From: Octopus vulgaris | Taxonomy: Eukaryota | DNA length: 64,000 nucleotides | Assembly: GCA_951406725.2 (NCBI GenBank) | Contig: OX597818.1 | Span: forward strand, 113,894,001 to 113,958,000 | Reading direction: 5' to 3' | In this document: one piece after another, positions 4,541-55,370 of the stretch | Layout of the letters: each line of letters begins with the position of its first letter | Position numbering within the stretch: the stretch's first letter is position 1 | The notes under the pieces: model-generated | Database searches by the model: none | What the model was told of the DNA's origin: nothing | The model's input: the letters and a program-made list of their open reading frames with translations, nothing else | Program-made: the position numbers and the translations under genes

Positions 4541-5189
4541 CATTCCCTAAAGACTATTATCCAAACCGTTATTCTTTTAAGGTGTTTTCGTATCGTTTAA
4601 GAAGAATTTTGCCATCATTGGTACTGTTCCAGATGTTATTCTTATTGTATACGTTCTTGTTCTTGATCATGTTATTATTCTGGCTGCTTGATTTTTCAAT
4701 ATTCTCTTTCTTTCTATTTTTTATTTATTTTTGTATATCTGAATATCTTTCGGTCTAACTATCCAACACAAACATTCTCTCTCCCGCATACCCTCCGTAT
4801 ATAAACATGCATAAAGCAATTAGATAGATAGATGATAAATAAATAGACAGACAGACAAACAGACAGACTGGTTGACTGATTGACTGATGAATTGACAGCA
4901 AGAAAAACAAATCGATAGGTCTATGTGTATATGCATACAATTCATCATGTGCAACCGTTAATCCAGATATTTTTTTCTCTCCGTTTTTCTTTCTCCCCAT
5001 CTGTTTTCTCCTCTCATTTCTTTCTGCAGAAGACCGCAGGCTCGAAATGTCAAAAGACTCTTCCTGAGCGTCCAGACCTTCATTGTTGTTCCTTCACCTG
5101 TTTCAGTCCATTGCTTTTATTTATTTATTTTTGGGTGGGATCAAGAGGTGGTATTCATCAACTTTTAGACATTATATTATGACCATTTA

Positions 5190-5925
5190 TTTTTTTTTAA
5201 AAACAATTATAATAATATACATGTATAACAGATTATGCTTTACATATACAAAAATACCAGTTATTATTAAAATATATAACGTAGAACATAGAAAGTATAT
5301 AAATATATATATTTTCAGTAAAGCATAAATCTGAAAGAGAAGCACACTCTAATAGGGCAGTAGAGTATACAGATAAAGATAGATATGTAGGTCTATGGGA
5401 TTACCCTGAGTTCCACGCCCATAAAGCGCTTAGCTTTACAGCGTTTCTTCAGACCCTAAAACCCGTTGACTTTCTAACGAGTGGCTTCTCTAGAAAATGG
5501 AAGAGGAAAATACTTCGTTACTCTATGCCAATAACAGGGCATGGTCTCCCTTCCCCCACTATTATTTGAACATGTTGGCATGTGGATCCCAGGACACCAG
5601 CAGGAATGTCCTCAAGTGCAAGCATTCTAGTGAACACCCCTTTGCAGTTTATGTAGGGACCAGGGTTTTCTTAGTATCTCCCATGATATTACGTTTGGAG
5701 TTCCGTCGTCTATCAGCCGCCATACATGGCTGACGAAGGACGTAGCGTATCTCATTTCTGGGATTCTAAAAGACAACTTGTGGTTGGAGAAGCGCTGTTT
5801 GAACACGTTGCCGGAAAATCCCATGTATCTCCGTGCGCAGGTGCTGACAACTCCGTTTCTATTGCTGTATGTGCTGGTGAGGGCATCATTAAAGGTGGCA
5901 TTGGTGGTGTTGGGGCATAAATGGG
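5190..5925 (-). mobile_element. Penelope-like element 3' end (GIY-YIG endonuclease remnant plus 3' UTR)
   Basis: ORF 5627-5824 (Y)MGFSGNVFKQRFSNHKLSF..TSFVSHVWRL fits the PLE GIY-YIG pattern YxG...FKxRxxNHxxSF...TxLSxxxW; degenerate HHR downstream. Confidence 0.8.
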
Positions 5926-6790
5926 ACCAAGCGTTGTAAACTGTGCATAACCTCTTTACACGCCCTTAAAAAAATTGTAATCGTGTTACATGTATCCCAT
6001 ACTACTGATTTGTATGTGCATATTCCAAAATTCCAGTCTTATAGAACCTGTTAAAAGGATTTTGCTCCTGAAAAATGGAGGTCATGGAGCTCTAAAATGT
6101 GAGATTTAAGGACCCTAGTGGGGGTGGGGGTCTTAATGTCAGCCAGACAAGTTGAATTGTTGAGAATCTTGGGTCTTATATCTATTGTTTGAATTTCTTT
6201 GAAATAGGAAATATATGTTCACTGGGTTTGTAAAAGAGAGCAAAGCTAGATGAAACCAAAAGACGAATGTTCACAATAAGCAGTCAGCTACCCTACCCTC
6301 GTCGTTACCATTCCCAATGTAGGATTCCACACCATCCAGGTGACAGGCACAGCTGTAAGATGTATTACGAATCTATAGCAATTGGAAGGGCGTGAAATAT
6401 TAAAATTAAAATAACAATAAAATATCAATGATTAAGTAAATTGCAAAAAATAATAATAAAAACGTATAAAATAGGTAATTTTAATATTTCTATTATATGT
6501 AATTTTCTAGATGGTGTAATTTAATTGTTCATTTTGAATTGATAAAAGGTGGTTCTTTTCTAATTTTATATATATATATTATGGTTGTATACTGTCAATC
6601 TAACAAGAACGTGACAGTAGGGGGTACACCACCGTTATATAGCCCTAGGAGGCATCGAACGCCTCCTGACAGCTCCGACACATTTTTAGAAACTCAATAT
6701 TTCTTATTTTGATAATCAGTGAATAGACTTCACTGACTATAGATATATACGAATACGAAGTCGAGACAGATATCGCCAGCTGACCGGTGT

Positions 6791-6848
6791 CTGCTACTCT
6801 AGGCCGATGAAGGACAATGATCCTGAAACACGGTGTCCCTAGATGCAG
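6791..6848 (+). ncRNA. type I hammerhead ribozyme fold, core CCGAUGA
   Basis: ctgc-tac-TCTAGG ccgatga AGGA caatga TCCT gaaa CA cgg TG tc CCTAGA-t-gcag; predicted cleavage after GUC (6837). Confidence 0.85.
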
Positions 6849-7154
6849 TTCCGGCGGTTGGGGGTGTTTGTCTCCCCTTCGTATGTGTATATAAGGACAC
6901 AGGATAAAATGTGTCGAAGCTGTCAGGAGGCGTTCGATGCCTCCTAGGGCTATATAACGGTGGTGTACCCCCTACTGTCACGTTCTTGTTAGATTGACAG
7001 TATACAACCATTATATCGCTCCACCACCGTACACCTCTCTACGAGAGATTTAGAAACTCAATATTTCTTATTTTGATAATCAGTGAATAGACTTCACTGA
7101 CTATAGATATATACGAATACGAAGTCGAGTCAGATATCGCCAGCTGACCGGTGT

Positions 7155-7212
7155 CTGCTACTCTAGGCCGATGAAGGACAATGATCCTGAAACACGGTGT
7201 CCCTAGATGCAG
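7155..7212 (+). ncRNA. type I hammerhead ribozyme fold, second copy
   Basis: Identical to 6791-6848, 364 bp downstream. Confidence 0.85.
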
Positions 7213-7665
7213 TTCCGGCGGTTGGGGGTGTTTGTCTCCCCTTCGTATGTGTATATAAGGACACAGGATAAAATGTGTCGAAGCTGTCAGGAGGCGTTCG
7301 ATGCCTCCTAGGGCTATATAACGGTGGTGTACCCCCTACTGTCACGTTCTTGTTAGATTGACAGTATACAATCATTATATCGCTCCACCACCGTACACCT
7401 CTCTACGAGAGATTTAGAAACTCAATATTTCTTATATATATATTATATTGTGTGAAATTTGATTTAGTATTTCTAACTGAATTTTTTTCTTTGTAAGTTT
7501 GGATTTTATTCCCTCAAATAATAATTACATATATATATATATATATATATATATACACTTGTAAATTTAAAATAAAAATAATAAGGGTGAAAAATTTAAT
7601 ATTAATTTGATTAATATGAATTTAAAACCAGTGGTGTAGCATATAAGACCATAGCGGATCTTCTT

Positions 7666-10478: not shown

Positions 10479-10567
<89 letters not shown>

Positions 10568-10673
10568 TTAAAATAACTAAGTCTCTCTAAAAGAAAACAG
10601 CGGCAGCGTTCCCGGAAAATAATAGTTATCGCCATACTCGAACAGAGATTGTCGGAAGCGACACCTACTGGCT

Positions 10674-10726
10674 GGCTACGCTGCATTGAAAAGGGGCAAT
10701 ACCCCGAAACGCGTCTGTAGCTGCCG
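10674..10726 (+). ncRNA. type I hammerhead ribozyme fold, U3-A8 core (UUGAAAA)
   Basis: ggc-tac-GCTGCA ttgaaaa GGGG caata CCCC gaaa cgcg tc TGTAGC-t-gcc; palindromic stem III ACGCGT. Confidence 0.85.
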
Positions 10727-11035
10727 GTCAAGTAGTGTGGAGCGACTGACCTCCCTTGTTCGAAGGTTATATGGATACAGTTTGTGTATCAAATAGCTAA
10801 CTTAAGGCGATGGCCTCATGGAGCTAATAAGCGGACAGCTTTTTTCTTATTTTTATAAGAATGCCATATTAGTATGGCGATAACTATTATTTTCCGGGAA
10901 CGCTGCCGCTGTTCTCTTTTAGAGAGACTTAGTTATTTTAATATTTCTATTATTGAAAACAAGTGGATGTATTCCACCGAAACTAGGTAAATAAAACCAT
11001 CGAACAGAGATTGTCGGAAGCGACACCTACTGGCT

Positions 11036-11088
11036 GGCTACGCTGCATTGAAAAGGGGCAATACCCCGAAACGCGTCTGTAGCTGCCG
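11036..11088 (+). ncRNA. type I hammerhead ribozyme fold, second copy
   Basis: Identical to 10674-10726, 362 bp downstream. Confidence 0.85.
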
Positions 11089-11249
11089 GTCAAGTAGTGT
11101 GGAGCGACTGACCTCCCTTGTTCGAAGGTTATATGGATACAGTTTGTGTATCAAATAGCTAACTTAAGGCGATGGCCTCATGGAGCTAATAAGCGGACAG
11201 CTTTTTTCTTATTTTTATAAGAATGCCATATTAGTATGGCGATAACTAT

Positions 11250-12660
<1,411 letters not shown>

Positions 12661-12668
12661 ATAGATAC

Positions 12669-12712
<44 letters not shown>

Positions 12713-13477
12713 GCACAAATACTAGTCGGTTGTTCCAGTTAGGTGCTCATAGTTGAACAGTTATCTTGGCATTTAATTGTATTTCACATTCGATCTCAGA
12801 ACGAATCACTTGCCTGGCAAATACATCTGTTTTGGAGGAAAATACGAAATGAATGGGAAATAAGTCATGTCTTGAATTCTTTCTCACCGCACGTGCGTGC
12901 ATACGCTACCCATCACCCACCACCCAACATTTTCGTCATTTACAACCAGGGTAAGTCGATAGCCCTACGGCCGCTTAACGTTCCTGTCATAAAAAGCAAA
13001 ACGCCATTTCGCCAGACGCTTTAATGATACTGAGGATACTGAAACCTACTGCCGTGAACAGTCCTGCAGCATGGTACGGATTAAGCTACCTGGTCCTTTA
13101 CAGTTCAGTCCATTCGGATGTAAAAAGGCACGCACACAAACACACACACATACACACACACGCACACACACACACACAAATACTCACACATACACGCGCG
13201 CGCACAAGCACCACCATCTTACTCTTCCCATACACACATGAACACACGAGTGAAATTATATGTGGATGTTCGACCTGCTAAAAATTTCCTCAAACCACTC
13301 CCGTTCTCGCAAAGCAGTACCACATGGCGTTGGTGATGGTGGTAATGGCAGCGATTTTTGATGGCATAGGTCGTTGTTGTTGATACTAATGTTGTTAATG
13401 GGTTAAGAGGAAATTGTTCTACTACTTTTACTAGAAGTTCACTTGTTGATTCATGTGCTGTGCTAGTGAGTGTATGG

Positions 13478-17496: not shown

Positions 17497-18786
17497 CGAG
17501 GGACGTTCAATAAGTAATGCCTCTGACCCACTTGCAGTTGTTTGATCTAGCTGAAATTGTGCATGTGCAATCATTTATATCTCTATAGAGTAAGTGGCAA
17601 ATTACAGCTCTGAATTAATTGTGGTTTCTGATTTACAGGTGTTTGAACCGAGTCAAGTGTGAAATGGAGCCTGTTGAGTGTCGAGCAGTGATCCGGTTTT
17701 TGTATTTGAAAGGACGCACACCACGGGAGACTTTTGATGAAATGAAAGTAACTTATGGTGATGATGCCCCATCATATGATCTTGTAAAACGCTGGCATCA
17801 TGAATTCAAACATGGTCGGAACTCTGTGGAAACAGCTCCCAGATCTGGTCGCGCCCTTCTGCCATTGATGAGGCATCTGTCCGTCAAGTTGAGGCTGCCA
17901 TTTTGGAAGATCGACGCATAATTATTCGCCAAATAGCCCATGAGGTCAAGATTAGTACCGGGTCTGTGGAAACTATCATTCATGACCATTTGCATATGAA
18001 AAAGGTGTCTGCCAGATGGATTTCCAGGTTGATCACGCCTTTCCAGAAGCAAGAACGCGTCGAGTGCTCGAGGGTGAATTTGGAGATGTGCCAAGAAGAT
18101 GAGTCAAAATTTTTCAAAAGACTGATTACACAGGATGAAACCTGGGTCCATCACGAAGGTCCAGAGACCAAAGCCCAGTCAATGCAGTGGAAGCACCGTG
18201 ACTCACCCCTCCAAAGAAGGCAAGGGTGCAGCCCTTCGCTGGCAAGGACATGCTCACAGTCTTCTGGGACCAAGACGGAGTAGTGATGACAGATTTCCTG
18301 GCAAAGAGTACCACAATTGCAGGAGCCTATTATGCTTCACTTTTGAGGAAATTAAGAGAAGTTATCAAAATCAAGAGGCGGGGCAAGATCAGCAAAGGCA
18401 TCCTCCTCCTGCAGGACAACGCTCCGGTCCACAACTCGCTTGTCGCCAGATCAGAAGCACAGGCGTATGGCTATGAACTCCTCCCCATCCCCCCTACTTT
18501 CCTGACCTTGCACCCTCTGATTTTCACCTCTTCCCAATCATGAAGTTGTTTTTGAAAGGAAAGCGTTTCCCAGATGATGCAGCCTTGATTTCTGAAGTCA
18601 CGTTGAGGTTGGAGGACCAAGCTGGGTTCTTCTACAAAAACGGTCTCCAGAGCCGCATCAAACGATGGGAGAAATGCGTAACTCTGGGTGGTTCCTATGT
18701 AGAAAAAGACTAATAACTGTGCCAAGTTTCGTTGCTCTACTGCTATGGGAAGTGGGTCAGGGGTATTACTTGTTGAATGCCCCTCG
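17497..18786 (+). mobile_element. full-length mariner transposon (irritans/Hsmar2-like)
   Basis: TA duplication; imperfect TIRs CGAGGGACGTTCAATAAGTAATGCCTCTGACCCACTT / AAGTGGGTCAGGGGTATTACTTGTTGAATGCCCCTCG; 1290 bp. Confidence 0.95.
17664..18713 (+). pseudogene. mariner transposase, frameshifted
   Basis: MEPVECRAVIRFLYLKG; WISRL (WVPxxL motif); ITQDETW; LLQDNA; PYFPDLAPSD; split over several frames. Confidence 0.92.
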
Positions 18787-22159: not shown

Positions 22160-22400
22160 TAACAGTACCAGTGGCCTAGCTCTCCGTCGGTGACGACGAC
22201 TAATGTTCCAGTTGATACGATCAACGGAATTGCCTGCTCGTGAAATTAACGTGCAAGTGGATGAGCACACTACAAACACGCATACCCCTGAAGTAGTTCT
22301 CAGGGAGATTCAGTGTAACACAGAATGTGACAAGGCTGGTCCTTTGAAATACAAACACAACTCGTTTTTGCCGGCTGAGTGGACTGGAGCAACATGAAAT
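22160..22400 (-). mobile_element. SINE family C fragment
   Basis: Shares CAGCTGAG.GGACTGG.GCAAC..GAAAT segment with 27160-27375. Confidence 0.5.
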
Positions 22401-22404
22401 AAAG

Positions 22405-23330
22405 AGTCTCACGGCGGCGTTGCAGAGAATAGAGCTTCAGCTGTTTAAGTTGAGCCCAATAATCAAGTCCCATCATGACATTTATTATATTTTTTTTGTG
22501 TGTGATTGATCTTTGAGGCGCTTCGATCCTCATTATATCTTGTTTTTTGTAGGGGGACCACAATGGGCAGCAGTATTCGAGGTGGGGCCTAGCGAATATG
22601 GAGACGAGAAGGATGATGGTTTCATCATTCCTAGATTGAAAAGTTCTGAGGATCCATGAGCACATTCTGCGGGCAACATCGACTTTTTTGTTGACGTGCA
22701 CACTCCAGCTAAGGTTGCTGATGACAGTTACAGCTAAGTCTCTGGTATTACCCGACGGTTCAAGTAGGTATCGCGACGGTAGTGTATTTGGTTGTTTGAG
22801 TATGCCTTCTTTTCCAAAGTGGATGAGCTCAAATTTCTCCTCGTTCAACTGCATATTGTTTTTTATTTTATTTATTCATTTTTTTGTTTTTGTGCTCACT
22901 GGGTTACTGTGCATAGGTCCGATTGAAGCAACGTTCGATCATATGCTCCCTTAATGACTTTCTGGAATATAGTCATCTGCAAATATTTTAATGGTGCTAT
23001 GTTCAATGGAATCTGCAATGTCATTGATATAGACAATAAAAAGAAGTGAATCCAGCACAGTACCCTTCGGGACTCCGCTGATGACTTTTGCTGGTTTTCC
23101 ACCAACTACAGCGTTGGATAGTTTCCTTAACAGTATATTGTGGTCGACTCTGTCAAATGCCTTGCTGAAATCAAGGTATATGACATCCGCGTTGGAGCCC
23201 TCAGTGCATTTAAGATATAAAAACTGGTGAAGGAGCTATATTAGACAGTCCCTCCCACCACGAAAGTCATGCTGGTTGCAATTTAGGAAACGATTTTGTT
23301 CTAGGAAGGCTGAAATTCTTGATCTCAACA
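22405..23330 (-). mobile_element. CR1-like LINE RT remnant
   Basis: IYLDFSKAFDRVDH (~23140-23180), FADD (~22972-22984), RPHLEYCCPLWSP, LKLYSLQRRR. Confidence 0.88.
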
Positions 23331-31659: not shown

Positions 31660-31727
31660 AACACTACGATCGTTTCATGGCTGTTAATTTCTTTAAATTT
31701 TCGAGTTACAGTCATTCATCAGGTGTT
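31660..31727 (-). ncRNA. type I hammerhead ribozyme fold, canonical core, long stem II
   Basis: Minus strand: AACAC ctgatga ATGACTGT..ACAGCCAT gaaa cgatcg ta GTGTT. Confidence 0.8.
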
Positions 31728-32730
31728 TTAAATATTTAACTTGGCGAGGTTTAATCATTGGGCAAATATCTTCTGCTATAGCCTCGGGCCGACGAAAGCC
31801 TTGTGAGTGGATTTAGTAGATGGAAACTGAAAGAAACCCGTTGTGTACATATTAATATATGTATGTATTTGTATATATGTGTTTCTGCATATTTGTATAT
31901 ATGTTAGTCTGTGTTTGTCCCCTCACCATCGCTTAACAACCGAGGTTGGTGTGTCTACACCCCCGTAAGTTAGCGGTGCAGTAGAAGGCCAGATTTTTCT
32001 AATTTGAAACTTCGTATACTGGTAGAATGTGTCAAAAGAAAACATTAATTTCAACTAGTTTTTTTGAGAAAAATGTATTTTATAAGTTTAAATGTAGTTT
32101 AAATCTGCGAATTTTAACCAATCGTATTGTCTGTTTTGATCTGAAATTATTAGCTTGCATAGTGTTACTGTGACGTAGACAGCTATTTTGTGAAAATTTT
32201 AAACAGAATGGGTAAGAAGTAAGCAAACAGCTGTGGTAGATGTGGTTATCATGGCAGTGGTGGTGGTGGTGTAGTGGTGACAGTGGATGTGTATGATGGC
32301 AGCAATTATAGTGTTGGTGTTTTTGTAGAGGTGGTGGAGGTGGTGGCGGCAGTGGATGATGATGATAATGATTATGATAGTAGTAGTGGCATTGATTATG
32401 TTAGGATGTCTCAGTGGTGGTTGTGAAGATGATTCTGATATTGATAGTCTTTGTATTGAGGTGGTGGCAGAGTCAGAGTAAATAGTAAGAGCCAAGTTAA
32501 CACAAGATTCTTAAATTTCGGAGATCATAAGATAGAGAGCAAGAAGTTAAAAGTTCCAATACTGGCCCAATTCCTACACCCCAGATTCTTCAACTATTTT
32601 ATAAGAAAGGGGTTAATGGCAGGATAGGGATTCAGCTTAAAAATAAATTGTATAACAAAAAATACATAAATAAATTACTGCTCCAACGATGTAATTTTAG
32701 TATGTGTGCGTGTATGTATGTATATATGTA

Positions 32731-32766
<36 letters not shown>

Positions 32767-32767
<1 letters not shown>

Positions 32768-33324
32768 AATAGGCAATACACCTTGAAACCTAGGTCCGTA
32801 TGTGGCATCCGCTTCTTGGGGAATGATCTCCCTTTGCAAGATAGAGGACGCCGTGATGGCGTCGGCCTATCTGGTGACGTTGATGTTCGCCTGGGGCTAA
32901 ATGCAACAGTGACACCACCACCACCCTGCCCTGTCCCTAGCCATATTCAGTTGGCTAATGTCCCTTATGTTATGGAGCAGTCACTGTCTATATCTCATTT
33001 AGAGAATTATTATTGCTGTCGAACAGATTTTCGAAATCAGTAAATGTATTTACTTGAAAATCTTTATATATATCTTGCACGGTGAGTTGTTCGTCGAGAA
33101 GCGGTGCCTACCATACGTTGATAATAGGCAATAGACCTTGAAACCTAGGTCCGTATGTGGCATCCGCTTCTTGGGGAATGATCTCCCTTTGCAAGATAGA
33201 GGACGCCGTGATGGCGTCGGCCTATCTGGTGACGTTGATGTTCGCCTGGGGCTAAATGCAACAGTGACACCCCCACCACCCTGCCCTGTCCCTAGCCATA
33301 TTCAGTTGGCTAATGTCCCTTATG

Positions 33325-33327
<3 letters not shown>
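32767..33327 (+). mobile_element. retrozyme-like element, 355-bp tandem monomer (~1.6 units)
   Basis: 32767-32972 repeated at 33122-33327; a complete HHR spans the unit junction. Confidence 0.8.
33097..33171 (+). ncRNA. type I hammerhead ribozyme fold, U3-A8 core (UUGAUAA)
   Basis: AGAAGCGG TGCC tac CATACG ttgataa t AGG caataga CCT t gaaa cctagg tc CGTATG t GGCA t CCGCTTCT. Confidence 0.82.
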
Positions 33328-33373
<46 letters not shown>

Positions 33374-35204
33374 TATGTTTGTATACATGTGTGTGTAGCT
33401 ATTTAGGATCTACACAAATTTTATATATACTCCACGAAGTTTGAAAGTGTTTAGTTAGAAAAAATTATTTTTTAAATCTGTAGGTCAAAAGGTAAAGATC
33501 CAGTATTTTAAATTTTTGTTGCATTTCTAATCTTTCTGATGTCTAAGGATGGATATTTATGCGTATGAATCTTTTTCTTTTTACTTTGTTTCAAATATAA
33601 TTCTAGGGAACTGAAAAAGCTGTGTACGATGCCAAGCGAATTTAGCTGTTTACGATAAGCGGATGTTTACGTTTTAGCTATTTACATGTTTACGTTAAGT
33701 ACGTCACAAAATAGCTGTTTACGTCACAGTAACAATATTTTGAGAGGCAGTAAATGATATGAGGTCGAAACAAAGAATACCATTGGTTAAAATTCGAATT
33801 ATTAAACAACGTTAAACTTAGAAATTACAATTCCGTTTTCATTTTGGTTTACAATTATGTTTTCTTTTGACACATTCTACCAGTATACGAAGTTTCAAAT
33901 TGTTTAGTTAACTAGAAAAATCTGGCCTTCTTTTAGAAAAGATCCTATTTATATATGTATGTATTTGTATATATGTGTGTCTGTATATTTGTATATATGT
34001 AAGTCTGTGTTTGTCCCCTCACCATCGCTTAACAACCGAGGTTGGTGTGTCTACACCCCCGTAAGTTAGCGGTGCAGCAAAAGAGACTGATAGTATAAGT
34101 ACTGAACTGACAAAGAATAAGTCCTGGGATCGATTTCTTCGATTAAAGGCAGTGCTCCAGTATGTCCGCTGTCAAATGACTCAAACAAGTAAAAAAAATA
34201 AAAGAACGTGTGTGTGTGTGCATGTGTGTGTGTGTGTGTGTGTGAATACATGCATGATATATACTTTCATACATACAGTATACATCGAAGATACATATAC
34301 CACACATACATGCAAGCATACATACAAACACATACAAACAACAGAGAAACAAACACGCGTTCATACATAAACACACACACACACATTGATACATGCATAC
34401 ATTCATGCATGGGTACACACGCACGCACGCACACTCACACACACACACATGCATGCATACATACACACACACACACACATACATACATACAAACATACAT
34501 ACATACATACACACACACATACATACATACATACATACATACATACATACATACATACATACATACATACATACAAACATACATACATACATACATACAT
34601 ACATACATACATACATACATACATACATACAATCTGGTCCTTCAACAGCCCCAAAATGTAATTGCTGCATAAAACATGCTAACATATCAACATCACTACA
34701 ACTTCCTTATTCATCAGCAACCTATTAAAATCTCTAATAATTTGACAAGATTTTTCCCATACCGTCCACGGTCGAATCCGTGTCCCAAAGGTTATGCTTA
34801 ATTCCAGTGCAAGAAAATATTTCAGCTGGTACTGGCTATTTTTCTCCAATACACAAAGGCGCTATACGATACAGCACTCCACTCATCTTGCCTGAATTAC
34901 CTTAGCTTTTCTCAATATCCTAACGGTATCTCACCTGTGGATTTTGAATTATTTGTCCACTCTTTTCTCCTTTGACAGTAATTGAACTTAAAAAGAGAAA
35001 TAAACATGAAAAATACTGAATCAGTGGACAAAAATAAATGAAAAGAAAAAAAAAAGAAAAACAGAGAATGAATGAAAGGAAAAAGTAAAGGGTGGAGGGG
35101 AAAAAAACAAAGAAAAATGGGGAAAGACCGACTAACAGACAGGAAGACAGCAAGATAAAAAACATGGACAGACATACAGACAGGCAAGCAGGCAGGACAA
35201 ACCA

Positions 35205-39272: not shown

Positions 39273-39483
39273 CAATTATAATAAAGGATAAAATCTTTTA
39301 AAATTTTATCTATTGCCAGCATATAAAAATAGACCTATTAAGGTGATGATTTAAAGTGGTTGGATGATTTAGCATCTCTTTTCAGCATATATGCTACATT
39401 ATTTCTATGCTCTTAGCAACGGTTCGTCGCTGGAAAAAGCATATAATATTTTGCGAATGGGGTGAGTTTTCATCACTAGCTGG

Positions 39484-39542
39484 TGATTAACACATGCTGA
39501 GGACGGGTAACTGCCCAGAAACTCGAGTCCATATTTATCATG
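39484..39542 (+). ncRNA. hammerhead ribozyme fold (partly decayed)
   Basis: ATG ctgagga c GGGT aact GCCC a gaaa ctcgag tc CAT; C-A mismatch at the base of stem II, short stem I. Confidence 0.65.
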
Positions 39543-39934
39543 TAAGGCTAGGAACAGAACTGACGACCTCTCCTCACAAATACTAATCGGGCACAGAATG
39601 TGTGTTGTTAGCCAGCTGGAAGAGATGTCTTTCTATGGCTACAAACGGCACGCCGGTAGCACTGTCCCGTATAGGACGCCATACTTGGTTGGCAATTATA
39701 TGTTACGATTCTGTATTGCTACTGTTTACGTCTTGCTCAGAGATTTAATATAGTATATAGTAAATATTAAGTTAGGGGTTGTAGGTCCAACCCACTAAGT
39801 GATAATAACTATCCAATATACTGTTGGTATAATACCCAATTATTAATACACAAGTGTTTTTTATTGCATTGCAATTAACTTCTCTAGTGTATTAAATGGG
39901 TGAAGGTAAAGATATATTTTTACCATTAATTTAT

Positions 39935-40175
39935 ATTGCAATTAAGAAAATGGAGGAGCACAATAGTTCGTTCATCAACTTTAGGACATTAAAAATGTTA
40001 ACTTATTTATTTATTAAACTGATAATTATAATAACATAAGGATATATGCATAGAATAATATGCTATATGTATGTATGTTATTATAATTATCAGTTAAATA
40101 AATAAATAAGTTAACATTTTTAATGTCCTAAAGTTGATGAACCAACTATTGTGCTCCTCCATTTTCTTATCTGCA

Positions 40176-40177
<2 letters not shown>
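39935..40177. repeat. palindrome with ~104-bp arms
   Basis: 39935-40038 is a near-perfect reverse complement of 40074-40177. Confidence 0.9.
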
Positions 40178-40248
<71 letters not shown>

Positions 40249-40442: not shown

Positions 40443-43400
40443 GTGATTGTTTGTTTGTTTCTTTGTTTGTTGGTTTGTTGGTTGGTTTGTTTCTTTGTTT
40501 GTTTGATTTTGTTTGTTTTCATTTTTTGTTTGTTTGCTGGTTTGTTTGTTTGTTGGGTTATTGGTTTGTTGGTTTCTTTGTTTTTGTTTGTTTGTTTGTT
40601 TGTTGGTTTGTTTGTTTGTTGGATTGTTGGTTTGTTTGTTTGTTTGATTTTGTTTGTTTTTTCTTTATTGTTTGTTAATTTGCTATTTTGTTTGTTTGTT
40701 TGTTGGTTTGTTTGTTGTGGTTTTTTGCTTGTTTGTTTGTTGGTTTCTTTGTATGATTCTTTGTTACTTTGTTGGTTTGTTTGTTTGTTTTCTTGCTTGT
40801 TTATTTGTTTTTGTTTGTTTTTTGTTTGTTTGTTGGTTTGTATATTGGTTATTTGGTTTGTTTGTTTGTTGGGTGGTTTGTTTGTTTGTTTGTTGGTTTG
40901 TTTGTTTGTTTGTTTGTTGGGTGGTTTGTTGGTTTGTTTGTTGGTTTGTTTGTTTGTTTGTTTGTTGGGTGGTTTGGTGGTTGGTTGGTTGGTTTGTCTG
41001 TTTGTTGGTTTGTTTGTTGTTTGTTGGTTTGTTTGTTGGGTGCTTTGTTGGTTTGTTTGTTTGTTTGTTGTGTGGTTTGTTGGTTTGTTTGTTTGTTTGT
41101 TGGTTGGTTTTTTGTTTGTTTGTTTTTTGTTTGTTTGTTGGTTGGTTTCTTGGTTTGTTTGTTTATTTGTTTGCTGGTTGGTTTGTTGGTTGGTTTCTTT
41201 GTTTGCTGGTTGATTTGTTGGTTGGTTTGTTTATTTGATGGTTTCTTTGTTTGTTGGTTTGTTGGTTTCTTTGTATGATTCTTTGTTTCTTTGTTGGTTT
41301 GTCTGTTTGTTTGCTTGCTTGTTTGTTTGTTTGTTTTAGTTTGTTTTTTGTTTGTTGTTTTGTTTGTTGGTTTGTTTGTTTGTTTGTTTATTTGTTTGTT
41401 TGTTCGTTTGTTGGGTGGTTTGTTGGTTTGTTTGTTGGGTGGTTTGTTGGTTTGTTTGTTTGTTTGTTGGGTGGTTGGTTTGTTTGTTTGTTGGTTTTTT
41501 GTTTGTTTGTTTGTTGGTGTGTTTGTTTGTTTTTTGTTTGTTTGTTTGTTGGTTTGTTTGTTTATTTGTTTGCTGGTTGTTTTGCTAGTTTGCTTGTTTC
41601 TAGGTTTGTTGGTTTGTTTTTTTTGCCGGTTTGTTTCTTTGTTGGTTAGCTGTTTTGTTTCTTTGTAGGTTTGTTGGTTTGTTTGTTTGTTTGTTTCTTT
41701 CTTTCTTTCTTGGTTTGTTTGTTTGTTTGTTTGTTTGCTGGTTTGTTTGTTTCTTTGTTGTGATCTTGGTTTCGTGGTTTGTTGGATTGGTGGTTTGTTT
41801 GTTTGTTGTTTGGTTTGTTGGTTGGTTTTTATGCTTGTTTGTTTGTTTGTTGGTTTGTTTGTTGTTTTTTTTTGGTTTGTGGGATTGTTGGTTTCTTGGT
41901 TTGTTTATAGATTGTTCGTTTGTTTGTTTGTCTGTTTGTTTTTTGTTTGTTGGTATGTAGGTTTGTTTGTTTGTTGGTTTGTTGGTTTGTTGGTTTGTTT
42001 GTTTGTTTGGTTATTTGGTTTGTTGGTTTGTTTGTTTGTTTGTTTGTTGGTGTGTTGGCTTTTTGTTGTTTATTGTTCATTTGTTGGTTTGTTTGTTTGT
42101 TTGATTGTAAGTTTGTTTGTTGGTTTATTGGTATGTTTGTTTGTTGGGTTGTTTGTTGGTTTGTTGGCTTTTTGTTTGTTGGTTTGTTTGTTTGTTGGTT
42201 TCTTGGTATGTTTGTTTTTTGGTGTGTTTGTTTCTTTGTTTTTTGTTTCTTGGTTTCTTGGTTTGTTTGTTTGTTGGTTGGTTTGTTGGATGTTGGTTTG
42301 TTTGTATGTTTGTTTGTTGGTTTGCTTGTTTCTAGGTTTGTTGGTTTGTTTTTTTGTTGGTTTGTTTGTTTCTTGGTTTGTTTGTTTGTCTGTTTGTTTC
42401 TTTTTTTTTGTTGGTTTATTGGTCTGTTTGTTTGCTGGTTTGTTTGTTTGTTTGTTTGTTTGTTGGTTTGTTTGTTTGTTTGTAGATTTTGTGGGTTTGT
42501 TAGTTTTTGTTTGCTTGTTTGTTGGTTTGTTTGTTTGTTAGTTTGTTGGTTTGTTTATTTGTTTCTTTGTTTGTTGGTTTGTTTGTTTGTTTGTTCGTTT
42601 GTTTGTTTGTTGGTTTGTTGGTTTCTTGGTTTGTTTGTTTGTTTGTTTGTTTGTTTATTTGATTGTTAGTTTGTTTATGTGTTTGTTTCATTGTTTGTTG
42701 GGTTTTTTTGCTTGTTTATTTTTGTTTCTTTGTCTGTTTATTTTTGTTTCTTTGTTTGTTGGTTTGTTGGCTGTTGGTTTGTTGGATTGTTGGTTTGTTT
42801 GATTGTTTGTTGGTTTGTTGGTTTGTTTGTTTGTTGGTTTCTTGGTTTATTGGTTTGTTTGTTTGTTTGTTTGTTTGTTTATTTGTTTGTTAGCTTGTTT
42901 ATGTGTTTGTTTCATTGTTTGTTGGTTTTTTTTGCTTGTTTGTTTGTTTGTTTGTTTATTTTTGTTGGTTTGTTTATTGGTTTGTTTGTTTGTGTTTATT
43001 GGTTTGTTCGTTTGTTTGTTGGTTTGTTGATTTATTTTTTGTTTGATTGTTTGTTTGTTAGTTTGTGTGTTTGTTGGTTTGTTGGTTTGTTGGATTGTTG
43101 GTTAGTTTGTTTGTTTGTTTGTTTGCTAGTTTGCTTGCTTCTTTGTTTGTTTGTTTGTTTGTTGGATTGTTTGATTGTTTGTTTGTTGATTTCTTTGTTG
43201 GTTTGATTTTTTTGTGGTTTGTTGTTTTGTTGGTTTCTTTGTTGGTTTGATTTTTTTGTGGTTTGTTGTTTTGTTTGTTTGTTGGTTAGTTTGTTTGTTT
43301 TTTGTTTGTTTGTTTGTTTGTTAGTTGGTTTGTTTGTTTGTTTCTTAGTGTGTTTGTTTGTTTGTTCCTTGGTTTGTTTGTTTGTTGGTTAGTTGGTTTG

Positions 43401-44060
43401 TTTGTTTGTTTCTTGGTTTGTTTGCTTGTTTGTTTCTTGGTTTGTTTGTTTGTTTGTTTGTTTGATTTTTGGTTGGTTTTTTGTTTGTTGTTTTGTTGGT
43501 TTGTTGGTTTCTTAGTTTGTTGTGTTTTTTGCTTGTTTGTTTGTTTCTTTCTTTCTTTCTTTGTTTCATTGTCTGTTTATTTTTCTTGGTTTGTTTCTTT
43601 GTTTGTTGGTTCTTTGGTTTGTGGGTTTGTTGGTTTGTTTGTTTGTTCGTTTGCTTGTTTGTTTGTCTGTTTGTCTGTTTGTTTGTTGGTCTTTTGTTTG
43701 TTTGTTTGTTGGTTTGTTTATTTGTTTGTTTGTTTGTTTGCTTGCTCCTTTGCTTGCTTGCTAGTTTACTTGCTTGCTTGCTTCTTTGTTTCTTTCTTTG
43801 TTTTTTGTTTGTTTGTTCGTTCGTTTGTTTTGTTTTTTGTTTGTTTGCTTCTTTGTTTGTTTGTTTGCTGGTTTGTTTGTTGGTTCTTTTTGCTTGTTTA
43901 TTTGTTTGGCTGGTTGGTTGTTTGGTTCTTTGGTTGGTTGTTTTGTTTGTTTGTTTGTTTGTTTTTTTCCGGTTCGTTGGTTTGTTGGTGTGTTTGTTTG
44001 TTTGTTTTTTCATTTTTTTGTTTGTCTGTTTGGTTGTTTGTTTATTTGTTTGGTGGTTTG
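40443..44060. repeat. 3.6-kb degenerate (GTTT/GTTG)n tract
   Basis: Direct reading; explains all ORFs called in this interval. Confidence 0.97.
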
Positions 44061-53323: not shown

Positions 53324-53359
<36 letters not shown>

Positions 53360-53360
53360 C

Positions 53361-55068
53361 GACAGTAGATTGCGCAGTTCTTTACCTTTTGACCGACAGA
53401 TTTAAAAATAATTTTTTATAACTAAACACTTTCAAACTTCGGACACTGGTAGAATGTGTTATACAAAATATCGTTTACTCTTTGCGTTTTTGAGAAAAAC
53501 TTATATTTACGGTGTTATTTCACGTTAAATTTGTCGTATTTTGGTAATTTCAACCAATCAATGACGTGTATTCAGCTGAATAAAATTACTGCCGTTGTTT
53601 GTTAACAAAACCGTCTGACGGTGTATTTTTCGTTTGTCACAGTTATTTATGACAACCCTAACCCTAACTCTAAAACTCTAACCTAACGCTAAAGCCCGAA
53701 ACCTAACACCCTAACCCTAAAACCTTAAAGCTAAAACCAGTACAAACGTATGAACGATGTCATAAATAACTGTGACAAACGAAAAATACTCCTCCGATAG
53801 TTGTTGTTGACAAACAACGGCAGTAATTTTATTCAGCTGAATACACGTCATTGATTGGTTGAAATTATCGAAATACGACGATTTCAACGTGAAATAACTC
53901 CGTAAATATAAGTTTTTCTCAAAAATGCTAAGATTAAAAGATATCTATATATATAAAACTCTAGTTGTGTGAGTGTCTGTCCCCTTCAATTTAGATTCCT
54001 AACTCCTCCCACATTTTGCGGTGCAGTTTAACCAAATTCGGGTATCTTATAGTCGTGATTCATATCGAGCCCGTCTGACTATTAGCGCGCGTCAACGATG
54101 AATCTACGATTTTAAAAATAATTTAACATCATTTTTTATTCCATTTTAATGCATAAAATGCATCGTGTGTCGATGGCAGTGGAGTTGGCGTCCACGCTCA
54201 CAGCTGCACCTGTTTGCTTCTCCCCCTTCCCTCCCTCGTGAAGCTGTGGGGAAGGGAGTGTAAAGAAATCAACGTCGTAATGCGTTGTCAAGGAGACCAG
54301 CGTTCTTTTAGAACAACGACTTCATGGCTTGAAGACACCAAAACAAAAATGGCTAAGAAAGCCCGAATTTATAAGGGAAGTAACTCTCTAAAAATGCTTA
54401 TATAGTTATTTCCCTTACAAACCCGAGCAACGCCGGGCGATACTGCTAGTCTATATATATAAAACTGCAGTTGTGTGAGTGTATGTCCCCTTCAATTTAG
54501 ATTCCTAACTACTCCCACATTTTGCGGTGCAGTTTAACCAAATTCGGGTATCTTATAGCCGTGATTCATATCGAGCCCGTCTGAGTATTAGCGCGCGTCT
54601 ACGATGAGTACGATTTTAAAAATAATTTAACATCATTTTTTATTCCATTTTAATGCATAATTTTTCGTGTGTCGATGGCGGCGGAGTTGGCGTCCATGGT
54701 CACACCTGCACCTGTTTGCTTCTCCCCTTCTTCCCTCCCTCGTGAAGCTGTGGGGAAGGGAGTGTAAGGAAATCAACGTCGTAAAGCGTTGTCAAGGAGA
54801 CCAGCGTTCTTTTAGAACAACGACTTCATGGCTTGAAGACACCAAAACAGAAATGGCTAAGAAAGCCCGAATTGGCATCTATAAGGGAAGTAACTCTCTA
54901 AAAATGCTTATATAGTTATTTCCCTTACAAACCCGAGCAACGCCGGGCGATACTGCTAGTTTTATATAACACATTCTACCAGTGTCCGAAGTTTGAAAGT
55001 GTTTAGTTATAAAAAATTATTTTTTAAATCTGTCGGTCAAAAGGTAAAGATCCGCGCAATCTACTGTC
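53361..55068. mobile_element. foldback/MITE-like palindromic element with degenerate (CCCTAA)n centre, interrupted by a Helitron dimer
   Basis: Left arm 53361-53654 mirrors 53758-53943 plus 54960-55068. Confidence 0.88.
53944..54959 (+). mobile_element. non-autonomous Helitron, head-to-tail dimer (53944-54449, 54450-54959)
   Basis: Same termini as 52089-53115; A|T target inside the palindrome's right arm. Confidence 0.92.
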
Positions 55069-55370
55069 CATTACACACACACACACACATATGCACACAC
55101 ACGCATGCACATACACACACACACACACACACACACGCACGCTTATGGTGCCACCCCAGTCTACATACTTACTCTCCCTTTTACGGCCCACCACTAATAC
55201 AATATAAAGAAAGAATAGCAATGATTTCCAGAATTTCTTTTCAAACGTCTGGCATCGATACATTGATGAGCGTCTTCGTTCGCAGATTGGACATGTAAAT
55301 ATTTGATTGATGAGACTAGGTATTTATTTGCATGTATATCTCTTTTCCAGTTCCTTCTGAGCACGTTTAC

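Follow-up and report, generated by a model that had tools for sequence, protein, structure and literature searches.

Judged from its sequence, a short tandem insertion in the genome of Octopus vulgaris is a non-LTR retrozyme and belongs to a class already known, and it was probably mobilised as a non-autonomous element, copied in trans by the reverse transcriptase/endonuclease of a Penelope-like element (PLE). The insertion, here called family C, lies in a 64,000-nucleotide stretch of contig OX597818.1 (assembly GCA_951406725.2, positions 113,894,001 to 113,958,000, forward strand), hereafter the window, which also contains three families homologous to it: A (near position 6.6 kb), B (near 10.6 kb) and the decayed D (near 39.5 kb). 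Two features of its hammerhead ribozyme, a U3-A8 core and a U-U mismatch at the base of stem II, are each known already, and that part of the finding is ordinary. The more valuable result, which rests on three insertions, is a shared two-site signature at the ends of A, B and C, and it bears on the question of which enzyme mobilises animal retrozymes and from which template.

Metazoan non-LTR retrozymes include the axolotl family Rtz_353/HHR_Amex2 and the 350-390 bp repeats of mussel; cleavage and ligation into circles have been demonstrated for other retrozymes, and PLEs are named there as no more than a strong candidate for mobilising the animal elements (PMC7229834). A PLE origin has been argued from co-occurrence and sequence similarity, with a link to PLE pseudo-LTRs, in a study that calls the mechanism unresolved (10.64898/2026.07.22.740005). 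The hammerheads of PLE pseudo-LTRs are of type I, with a palindromic stem III and a dimer mechanism (PMC4209133), and hammerhead dimers and loop contacts are treated in PMC6155905. PLE insertions themselves are described as partial tandems that lie beside an inverted copy shortened at its 5' end, carry a tail of 30-40 bp at one end and favour microsatellites (PMC8557442), and for an anole PLE reverse transcription was shown to begin, once AT-rich DNA had been nicked, at two neighbouring internal sites (PMC11167929). Recently active PLEs are described from Octopus vulgaris in a report whose main text does not deal with ribozymes (PMC13282606). Our search of the open-access literature, which covered text outside figures and supplements, found no paper on octopus or cephalopod retrozymes, nor any on fixed retrozyme 3' ends or on U3-A8 combined with U-U in one ribozyme.

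Results

A young insertion of a 355-bp repeat

Family C is 562 bp long, with 33328 as its last matching base (Table 1). Compared with itself at a period of 355, the sequence agrees at 221 of 260 positions, while the 29 other periods between 340 and 369 give 61-86 matches each; this bears out the 355-bp tandem of the preliminary description. The duplicated part covers 206 bp and is 99% identical, its two differences being C/G at 32779/33134, in loop II, and A/C at 32917/33272; the locus is a young daughter copy. Tandem Repeats Finder, run on the window, did not report the insertion because it holds fewer than two copies. Family C occurs once within the 64-kb window.

The structure agrees with the definition of a non-LTR retrozyme: head-to-tail units of 150-450 bp, a type I hammerhead, GC below 50% (45% in this unit) and no coding capacity. 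Frames in and around the insertion gave no Pfam match, and a 170-codon frame at 32531-33043, which spans the microsatellite and likewise has no Pfam match, was rejected as a gene. Loose patterns for Pol III boxes A and B found none in the insertion. Six short AT-rich matches in a phage collection, covering 12-14% of the unit, were taken as chance. Family C thus resembles the axolotl and mussel retrozymes in its tandem unit of about 350 bp, GC below 50%, one type I hammerhead per unit and lack of an ORF, but it has only one complete ribozyme, unlike the animal retrozyme arrays described in PMC7229834. By the rule of two complete ribozymes used in 10.64898/2026.07.22.740005, C is not an active locus, which counts against activity of the locus rather than against family membership.

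Table 1. Coordinates of family C, its surroundings and its relatives, numbered from the first nucleotide of the window
Feature	Position	Strand	Description
Family A	6581..7435	+	364-bp unit, 2.06 copies (6685-7435); core CCGAUGA; cuts 6837/7201
Family A, inverted 5' piece	6581-6686		Ends +234 (direct), +174 (inverted)
Family B	10563..11252	+	362-bp unit, 1.70 copies (10638-11252); core UUGAAAA; cuts 10715/11077
Family B, inverted 5' piece	10563-10638		Ends +175 (direct), +231 (inverted)
Left arm of TIR-type element	31983..32193	+	Non-coding; outer end shorter than that of the right arm; lacks a 13-nt stretch
Left flank of C (target)	32703..32766	+	(TATG)n/(TG)n microsatellite
Family C, whole insertion	32767..33328	+	1.58 units of a 355-bp non-coding repeat
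Copy 1, 5'-truncated hammerhead	32767..32796	+	U7-A9, stem II (U-U base), GAAA, palindrome 32788-95, C17 at 32796
Cleavage-defined monomer	32797..33151	+	355 nt; predicted long rod closed by stem I, z -4.9 (folding)
Stem I, 5' strand	33094..33117	+	11 bp (8 Watson-Crick) + 4 bp + UAC loop + 6 bp
Catalytic core UUGAUAA	33118..33124	+	U3-A8 in place of C3-G8
Stem II	33125..33139	+	U10.1-U11.1, three pairs, loop CAAUAGA
GAAA, palindromic stem III and C17	33140..33151	+	Palindrome ACCUAGGU (33143-50); C17 at 33151
Stem I, 3' strand	33152..33174	+	Includes unpaired U33158 facing the UAC loop
Hairpin and 3' end of C	33293..33328	+	Hairpin 33293-33312 common to A-D, then 3' end at +177; putative priming site 1
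Right flank of C (target)	33329..33370	+	(TA)n microsatellite
Right arm of TIR-type element	33704..33931	-	Same inverted repeat; related to the termini of element 53357-55073
Family D, decayed single copy	39447..39800	+	Core CUGAGGA at 39497, palindrome ACUCGAGU, C17 at 39529; boundaries uncertain

A type I hammerhead with two departures from the consensus

The analysis supports the hammerhead anatomy of the preliminary description. The single complete hammerhead lies in copy 2 (33094-33174) and follows the type I layout, with three helices round the core N3 U G A N N8 A / G A A A / U H and stem I open. Stem I, rightly given at the outset as 6+4+8 bp, has an inner helix of 6 bp (33112-17/33152-57), then a UAC/U internal loop and a helix of 4 bp; beyond a U bulge come 8 Watson-Crick bp, and this outer helix grows to 11 bp when three G-U pairs are counted. 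The stem III palindrome is found as reported, and in both copies. Compared with the strict consensus (C3/G8 and a paired 10.1-11.1), the ribozyme departs in two ways, by U3-A8, which retains the 3:8 pair as U-A, and by U33125 standing opposite U33139. Copy 1 starts at U7 and lacks both the 5' strand of stem I and U3-A6, so the U3-A8 core is present once, in copy 2 only; the U-U does occur in both copies, but as parts of one insertion these are not independent evidence. An alternative register for stem II, with an extra U9.1 and an A10.1-U11.1 pair in the style of the minimal PLE hammerhead, was rejected at +1.8 kcal/mol against -0.5 for the U-U register, being worse by 2.3 kcal/mol as a hairpin and by 2.9 in context. 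The ribozyme region folds at z -6.3.

A strict descriptor, calling for a stem I of at least 6 bp and a palindromic stem III, matched the window at five places and had no match in 30 dinucleotide shuffles; the four matches other than C are the two complete hammerheads of family A and the two of family B. With a loose descriptor there were six matches against a mean of 0.37 in shuffles. A minus-strand CUGAUGA at 31722 passes the loose descriptor only and was set aside as being at chance level. Rfam returned no match at the gathering score for the whole window, its hammerhead model RF00163 did not match C at that score or at E up to 10, and E-value mode gave only microsatellite-driven or weak matches in the window.

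Both departures have precedents, and the novelty first ascribed to them was overstated. Natural hammerhead variants include U3-A8, U10.1-U11.1 and U4C, with U-U the best tolerated mismatch at 10.1-11.1 (PMC3088659), and U3-A8 occurs in about 1,300 PLE-type motifs of S. mansoni (PMC4209133); all three of the variants taken from PMC3088659 are present here, the first two together in C and U4C in family A. In HHR_Amex2, of the axolotl 350-bp family, helix II likewise starts with a U-U and a tetraloop closes a helix III of 2 bp; its monomer cleaves weakly (22% in 1 h), its dimer far better (PMC7229834); set against that text description, core excluded, C adds U3-A8. With the PLE pseudo-LTR hammerheads C shares type I, a palindromic stem III and a predicted dimer mode. 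Those ribozymes, however, are minimal: stem I is short, stem II long and helix III absent, one base is added after A9, and the pair at the base of stem II is G10.1-C11.1 (PMC4209133), whereas C has the canonical geometry, a 6-bp stem I, a stem II of four positions, putative loop contacts and no ORF.

Three related families and the history of the core

Family A carries the U4C variant and a 3-bp stem III. Family B, whose copies are identical over 253 bp, has two complete U3-A8 hammerheads, sits in a long (TA)n and is the best candidate for an active locus in the window; it is presumably the first U3-A8 case to which the preliminary description alluded. Family D was found by profile search and keeps a canonical core; it scores 15.5 bits with RF00163, under the gathering score of 34, and the sequence 5' of its ribozyme is absent downstream. 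Family D may have had a longer unit, or may be what is left of a pseudo-LTR.

The bodies of A, B and C are 46-51% identical and align with local scores of 37.5-64, above all 200 shuffles in each of the three pairs. Across these families 50 of 51 helix cells are paired, the sole unpaired cell being the U-U of C, two-sided changes have occurred at 11 of 17 helix positions, and C keeps 16 of 17 scored pairs. This pairing and covariation are the best evidence on the point and imply, as far as sequence comparison goes, that the hammerhead fold has been under selection. The UAC/U loop, the CAAU start and the final A of loop II are invariant in A-C, and the sequences of loops I and II, between which a tertiary contact may form, and the helix lengths are conserved.

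At position 10.1-11.1 family A has A-U, B has G-C, C has U-U and the decayed D has C-A, so that the U-U is specific to C, and its conservation extends to the two copies of that insertion and not to the other families. Because it is present in both copies of a young insertion, the comparison supports the U-U as a feature of the mobilised template, older than this integration. In a quartet test (A,B)(C,D) was best, (A,C)(B,D), with a p-AU of 0.07, was not rejected, and (A,D)(B,C) was rejected with a p-AU of 0.017; informative sites numbered 24/20/8, 21/17/9 and 21/16/9 under three alignment modes, counted with gap columns left out, in four sequences of 43-53% pairwise identity and hence weak alignment. 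Rejection of the B+C grouping implies that the 3:8 pair switched at least twice among A-D, as read from this weak, low-identity alignment. The tree thus gives partial support to C as an independent U3-A8 case, as it was first called, but its body is homologous to that of family B, which is itself U3-A8.

Two fixed 3' ends and variable 5' starts

Counted from the cleavage site that most closely precedes it, the 3' end of the direct part is at +234 in A, +175 in B and +177 in C, and (AT)n follows in every case; the outer ends of the inverted left-end pieces of A and B map to +174 and +231. The five 3' ends of the three insertions form two groups, +174-177 and +231-234, which together span 10 of 377 alignment columns. 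Under random placement P is 0.0008, or 0.001-0.007 if limited to sites ending in T or AT, and the clustering survives restriction to TAT/CAT/TTT sites (P 0.007), for a statistic picked post hoc, with five microhomology filters, on five ends from three insertions. Both sites are used in A, where they are 60 nt apart, and in B, where the distance is 56 nt. A hairpin placed alike in A-D stands a short way 5' of each site. All five ends finish in T within AT-rich microhomology, and all three insertions sit in TA-rich repeats.

The 5' starts, by comparison, differ (-152, -77 and -29). The insertions are 2.06, 1.70 and 1.58 units long and each runs through two cleavage sites; all three intact ones are partial tandems with 5' truncation, and two of the three, A and B, have an inverted 5' piece that is absent in C. 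As the 3' ends are fixed while the 5' ends vary, we read the pattern as fixed priming with 5' truncation. The start of C inside the ribozyme core, which had been put down to a circularly permuted template, is best read in the same way and not as random permutation; its first two nucleotides, TA, could be microhomology with the target.

These ends, the inverted pieces and the (TA)n targets look like Penelope-type priming and 5' truncation. The likeness to EN+ PLE insertions extends to the partial tandems, the AT-rich or microsatellite targets, the two putative start sites and, in A and B but not in C, the inverted 5'-truncated copy and the tail at one end; the differences are a non-coding unit (355 nt in C) and two sites 56-60 nt apart, not 30-40. 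The Results and Discussion of PMC7229834 make no mention of inverted 5' pieces or two fixed 3' ends. A length of more than one unit, running through two cleavage sites, makes a circular or multimer template plausible, and an uncleaved multimer would fit equally.

Predicted folding favours a cut between copies

In an energy model that omits tertiary contacts and Mg2+, the active monomer fold of C is predicted to cost about 6.9 kcal/mol (P about 1e-5), because a 5-bp hairpin between the 3' strand of stem II and the cleavage strand wins. At the loop II difference between the copies, the G of copy 2 is predicted to supply the fifth pair of that inhibitory hairpin. Copy 1 still offers a palindrome, C17 and the 3' strand of stem I, and in a predicted swapped fold core 2 pairs with it by a stem III of 8 bp, so that the cut would fall at 32796. 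This fold has a predicted P of 0.12-0.29 in nascent transcripts ending 0-25 nt past 33151 and falls to about 5e-6 when the transcript reaches 33327 or full length, which suggests a co-transcriptional window for the 32796 cut. A dimer-type cut there is predicted to be preferred over one at 33151, the site originally put forward for a cleavage assay.

The corresponding swapped fold is predicted at P 0.33-0.50 in B and is not favoured in A (about 1e-6, ddG 7.4-8.7), which may depend on the 3-bp stem III that its monomer can form. For circular RNAs of all three families the predicted cost of the active fold is 6-7 kcal/mol, with P about 1e-5 for the C circle. After the first cut, a cut at 33151 would require either the unfavourable monomer fold (7.2 kcal/mol) or a second molecule acting in trans; with the second cut poor and no second core, the C locus should be a weak source of circles.

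Genomic surroundings

The window is microsatellite-rich animal DNA, and the direct target of C is the microsatellite between the two arms of the TIR-type element. The arms are 75% identical, with one 45-bp block identical, and in place of a short TSD they are flanked by a 138-bp direct duplication (31850-31987 / 33946-34083). This duplication is a piece of an interrupted SINE-like repeat, lies next to the shortened left arm and shows six differences, two of them at the junction; it may have arisen by repair or template switching. The SINE-like repeat itself, which is interrupted at 31850-34200, looks like a common octopus repeat. A Pfam scan of frames found no transposase for the TIR element. 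Since A and B have no match to its arms, the nesting of C looks incidental: the inverted arms noted previously are real, and nothing ties them to the mechanism. Inside the arms, 67 bp (33435-33501) are 97% identical to the terminal repeat of a non-coding element at 53357-55073, which has terminal inverted repeats of about 110 bp, lies in a (TG)n site and contains an internal 188-bp inverted repeat (53468-53944) with central telomere-like CCCTAA repeats (53654-53738).

Among 142 frames scanned there was no PLE ORF or protein remnant (RT plus GIY-YIG) and only two RT matches. These are broken remnants at 11447-12746 (-) and 22303-23235 (-), the first close to the microsatellite 3' of family B, and by their motifs both look LINE-like. 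A broken mariner-type transposase at 17619-18540 has Pfam HTH_48 and Transposase_1 in different frames. The window further includes a near-perfect long inverted repeat at 39934-40178 (218 bp, 91%), related to 5154-5248, and a 3.6-kb (TTGT)n-like microsatellite array with strong strand skew at 40447-44060.

Discussion

The mechanism that we think probable begins with a source array elsewhere, which would be transcribed as a multimer. Adjacent hammerheads would join their palindromes into an 8-bp stem III, cut at C17 and free 355-nt monomers for a host ligase to close, cleavage and ligation being assumed by analogy with other retrozymes (PMC7229834). A lone C circle, with a stem III of only 2 bp, would be mostly inactive according to its computed fold. 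A PLE protein, the proposed agent behind the observed ends, would then nick (TA)n DNA and start reverse transcription at one or other of two internal positions, fixed at about 175 and 233 nt 3' of the cut. Copying would pass the cleavage junction twice, giving 1.6-2.1 units, and stop variably, in C by chance inside the core; we lean slightly towards a circle as the template for this step. In A and B the second strand would be primed at the other site, leaving the inverted piece. A nascent transcript of C, though it lacks a second core, could still bring core 2 to site 1 and be cut at 32796. The conserved geometry of loops I and II probably compensates for the U-U.

Several findings count against parts of this scheme. 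The tail of the A and B insertions, at 56-60 nt, is longer than the 30-40 of PLEs, C has no inverted piece and the scanned frames hold no PLE remnant, all of which weigh against a PLE. The dimer-cut step is weakened by predictions that the swapped fold is not favoured in A and is lost in the full-length transcript of C. Against any step that depends on the ribozyme, eight of nine Xenopus retrozyme dimers failed to cleave in vitro (10.64898/2026.07.22.740005), and PLE insertion in vitro was not blocked by hammerhead mutants (PMC11167929).

In the strongest alternative, possible though not favoured, the same element and PLE machinery use an uncleaved linear multimer as the template, with no circle and with a ribozyme that its two weakening changes have left slow or dispensable. 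Reading through two intact junctions fits it equally well, a PLE in vitro worked mainly on unprocessed RNA (PMC11167929), and the hairpin of the stem II and cleavage strands is predicted to win in the C monomer. The fold itself speaks for the ribozyme, however, C having kept nearly all scored pairs while the helices covary across families, as expected of selection; and with 5' truncation the number of copies would only shrink unless it were re-amplified, an argument for circles that draws on PMC4209133.

A different enzyme is unlikely to account for the ends. L1-type twin priming can yield inversions, and a LINE enzyme (RTE- or CR1-like) might prime by TA microhomology at unstructured AU-rich stretches. 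The T-ending, AT-rich microhomology at five of five ends would suit it, as would the LINE-like remnants in the window and the direct pieces that stop 38 (A) and 54 (B) nt from the priming site of the inverted piece, as twin priming predicts. Set against this, end clustering holds when only TAT/CAT/TTT sites are allowed, the retrozyme families show no similarity to the flanks of the two RT remnants, and animal retrozymes are tied to PLE pseudo-LTRs (10.64898/2026.07.22.740005).

Still less probable is that reverse transcription begins at arbitrary points on a circle, so that insertions are freely permuted and C starts in its core by chance. The three different 5' starts and the lengths above one unit are compatible with this, but truncation alone predicts variable 5' ends, and the 3' ends, at which target-primed copying starts, gather at two sites that are homologous between families. 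That a lone decayed insertion was duplicated locally at the DNA level and carried by the TIR element is very improbable: the 99% identity of the C copies and the nearby 138-bp duplication, a sign of DNA-level events at the locus, agree with it, but three families share the 1.6-2.1-unit form with colinear bodies and no novel junction, and A and B do not match the TIR arms.

Under the PLE mechanism preferred here we tentatively advance a broader reading, in which these families form a clade of canonical-hammerhead retrozymes that records the mechanism in its junctions. Two hairpin-adjacent priming sites, one per target strand, would have been kept across families about 45-50% identical, and the template read for more than one lap; the 3:8 pair would have flipped between C-G and U-A at least twice; and C, which bears U3-A8 and U10.1-U11.1 together, would have a weakened, dimer-only ribozyme that may protect the circle. 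If true, this would provide junction-level evidence that PLE proteins copy ribozyme-made circles. C-like hammerheads escape Rfam and strict descriptors, and counts of retrozymes in such genomes are therefore probably low. The fixed pair of 3' ends, together with the inversions and the (TA)n targets, offers a simple genome-wide test and RNA sites for an in vitro PLE assay, and the common footprint of C, A and B, with the same two end points, hints at the enzyme that copies such elements.
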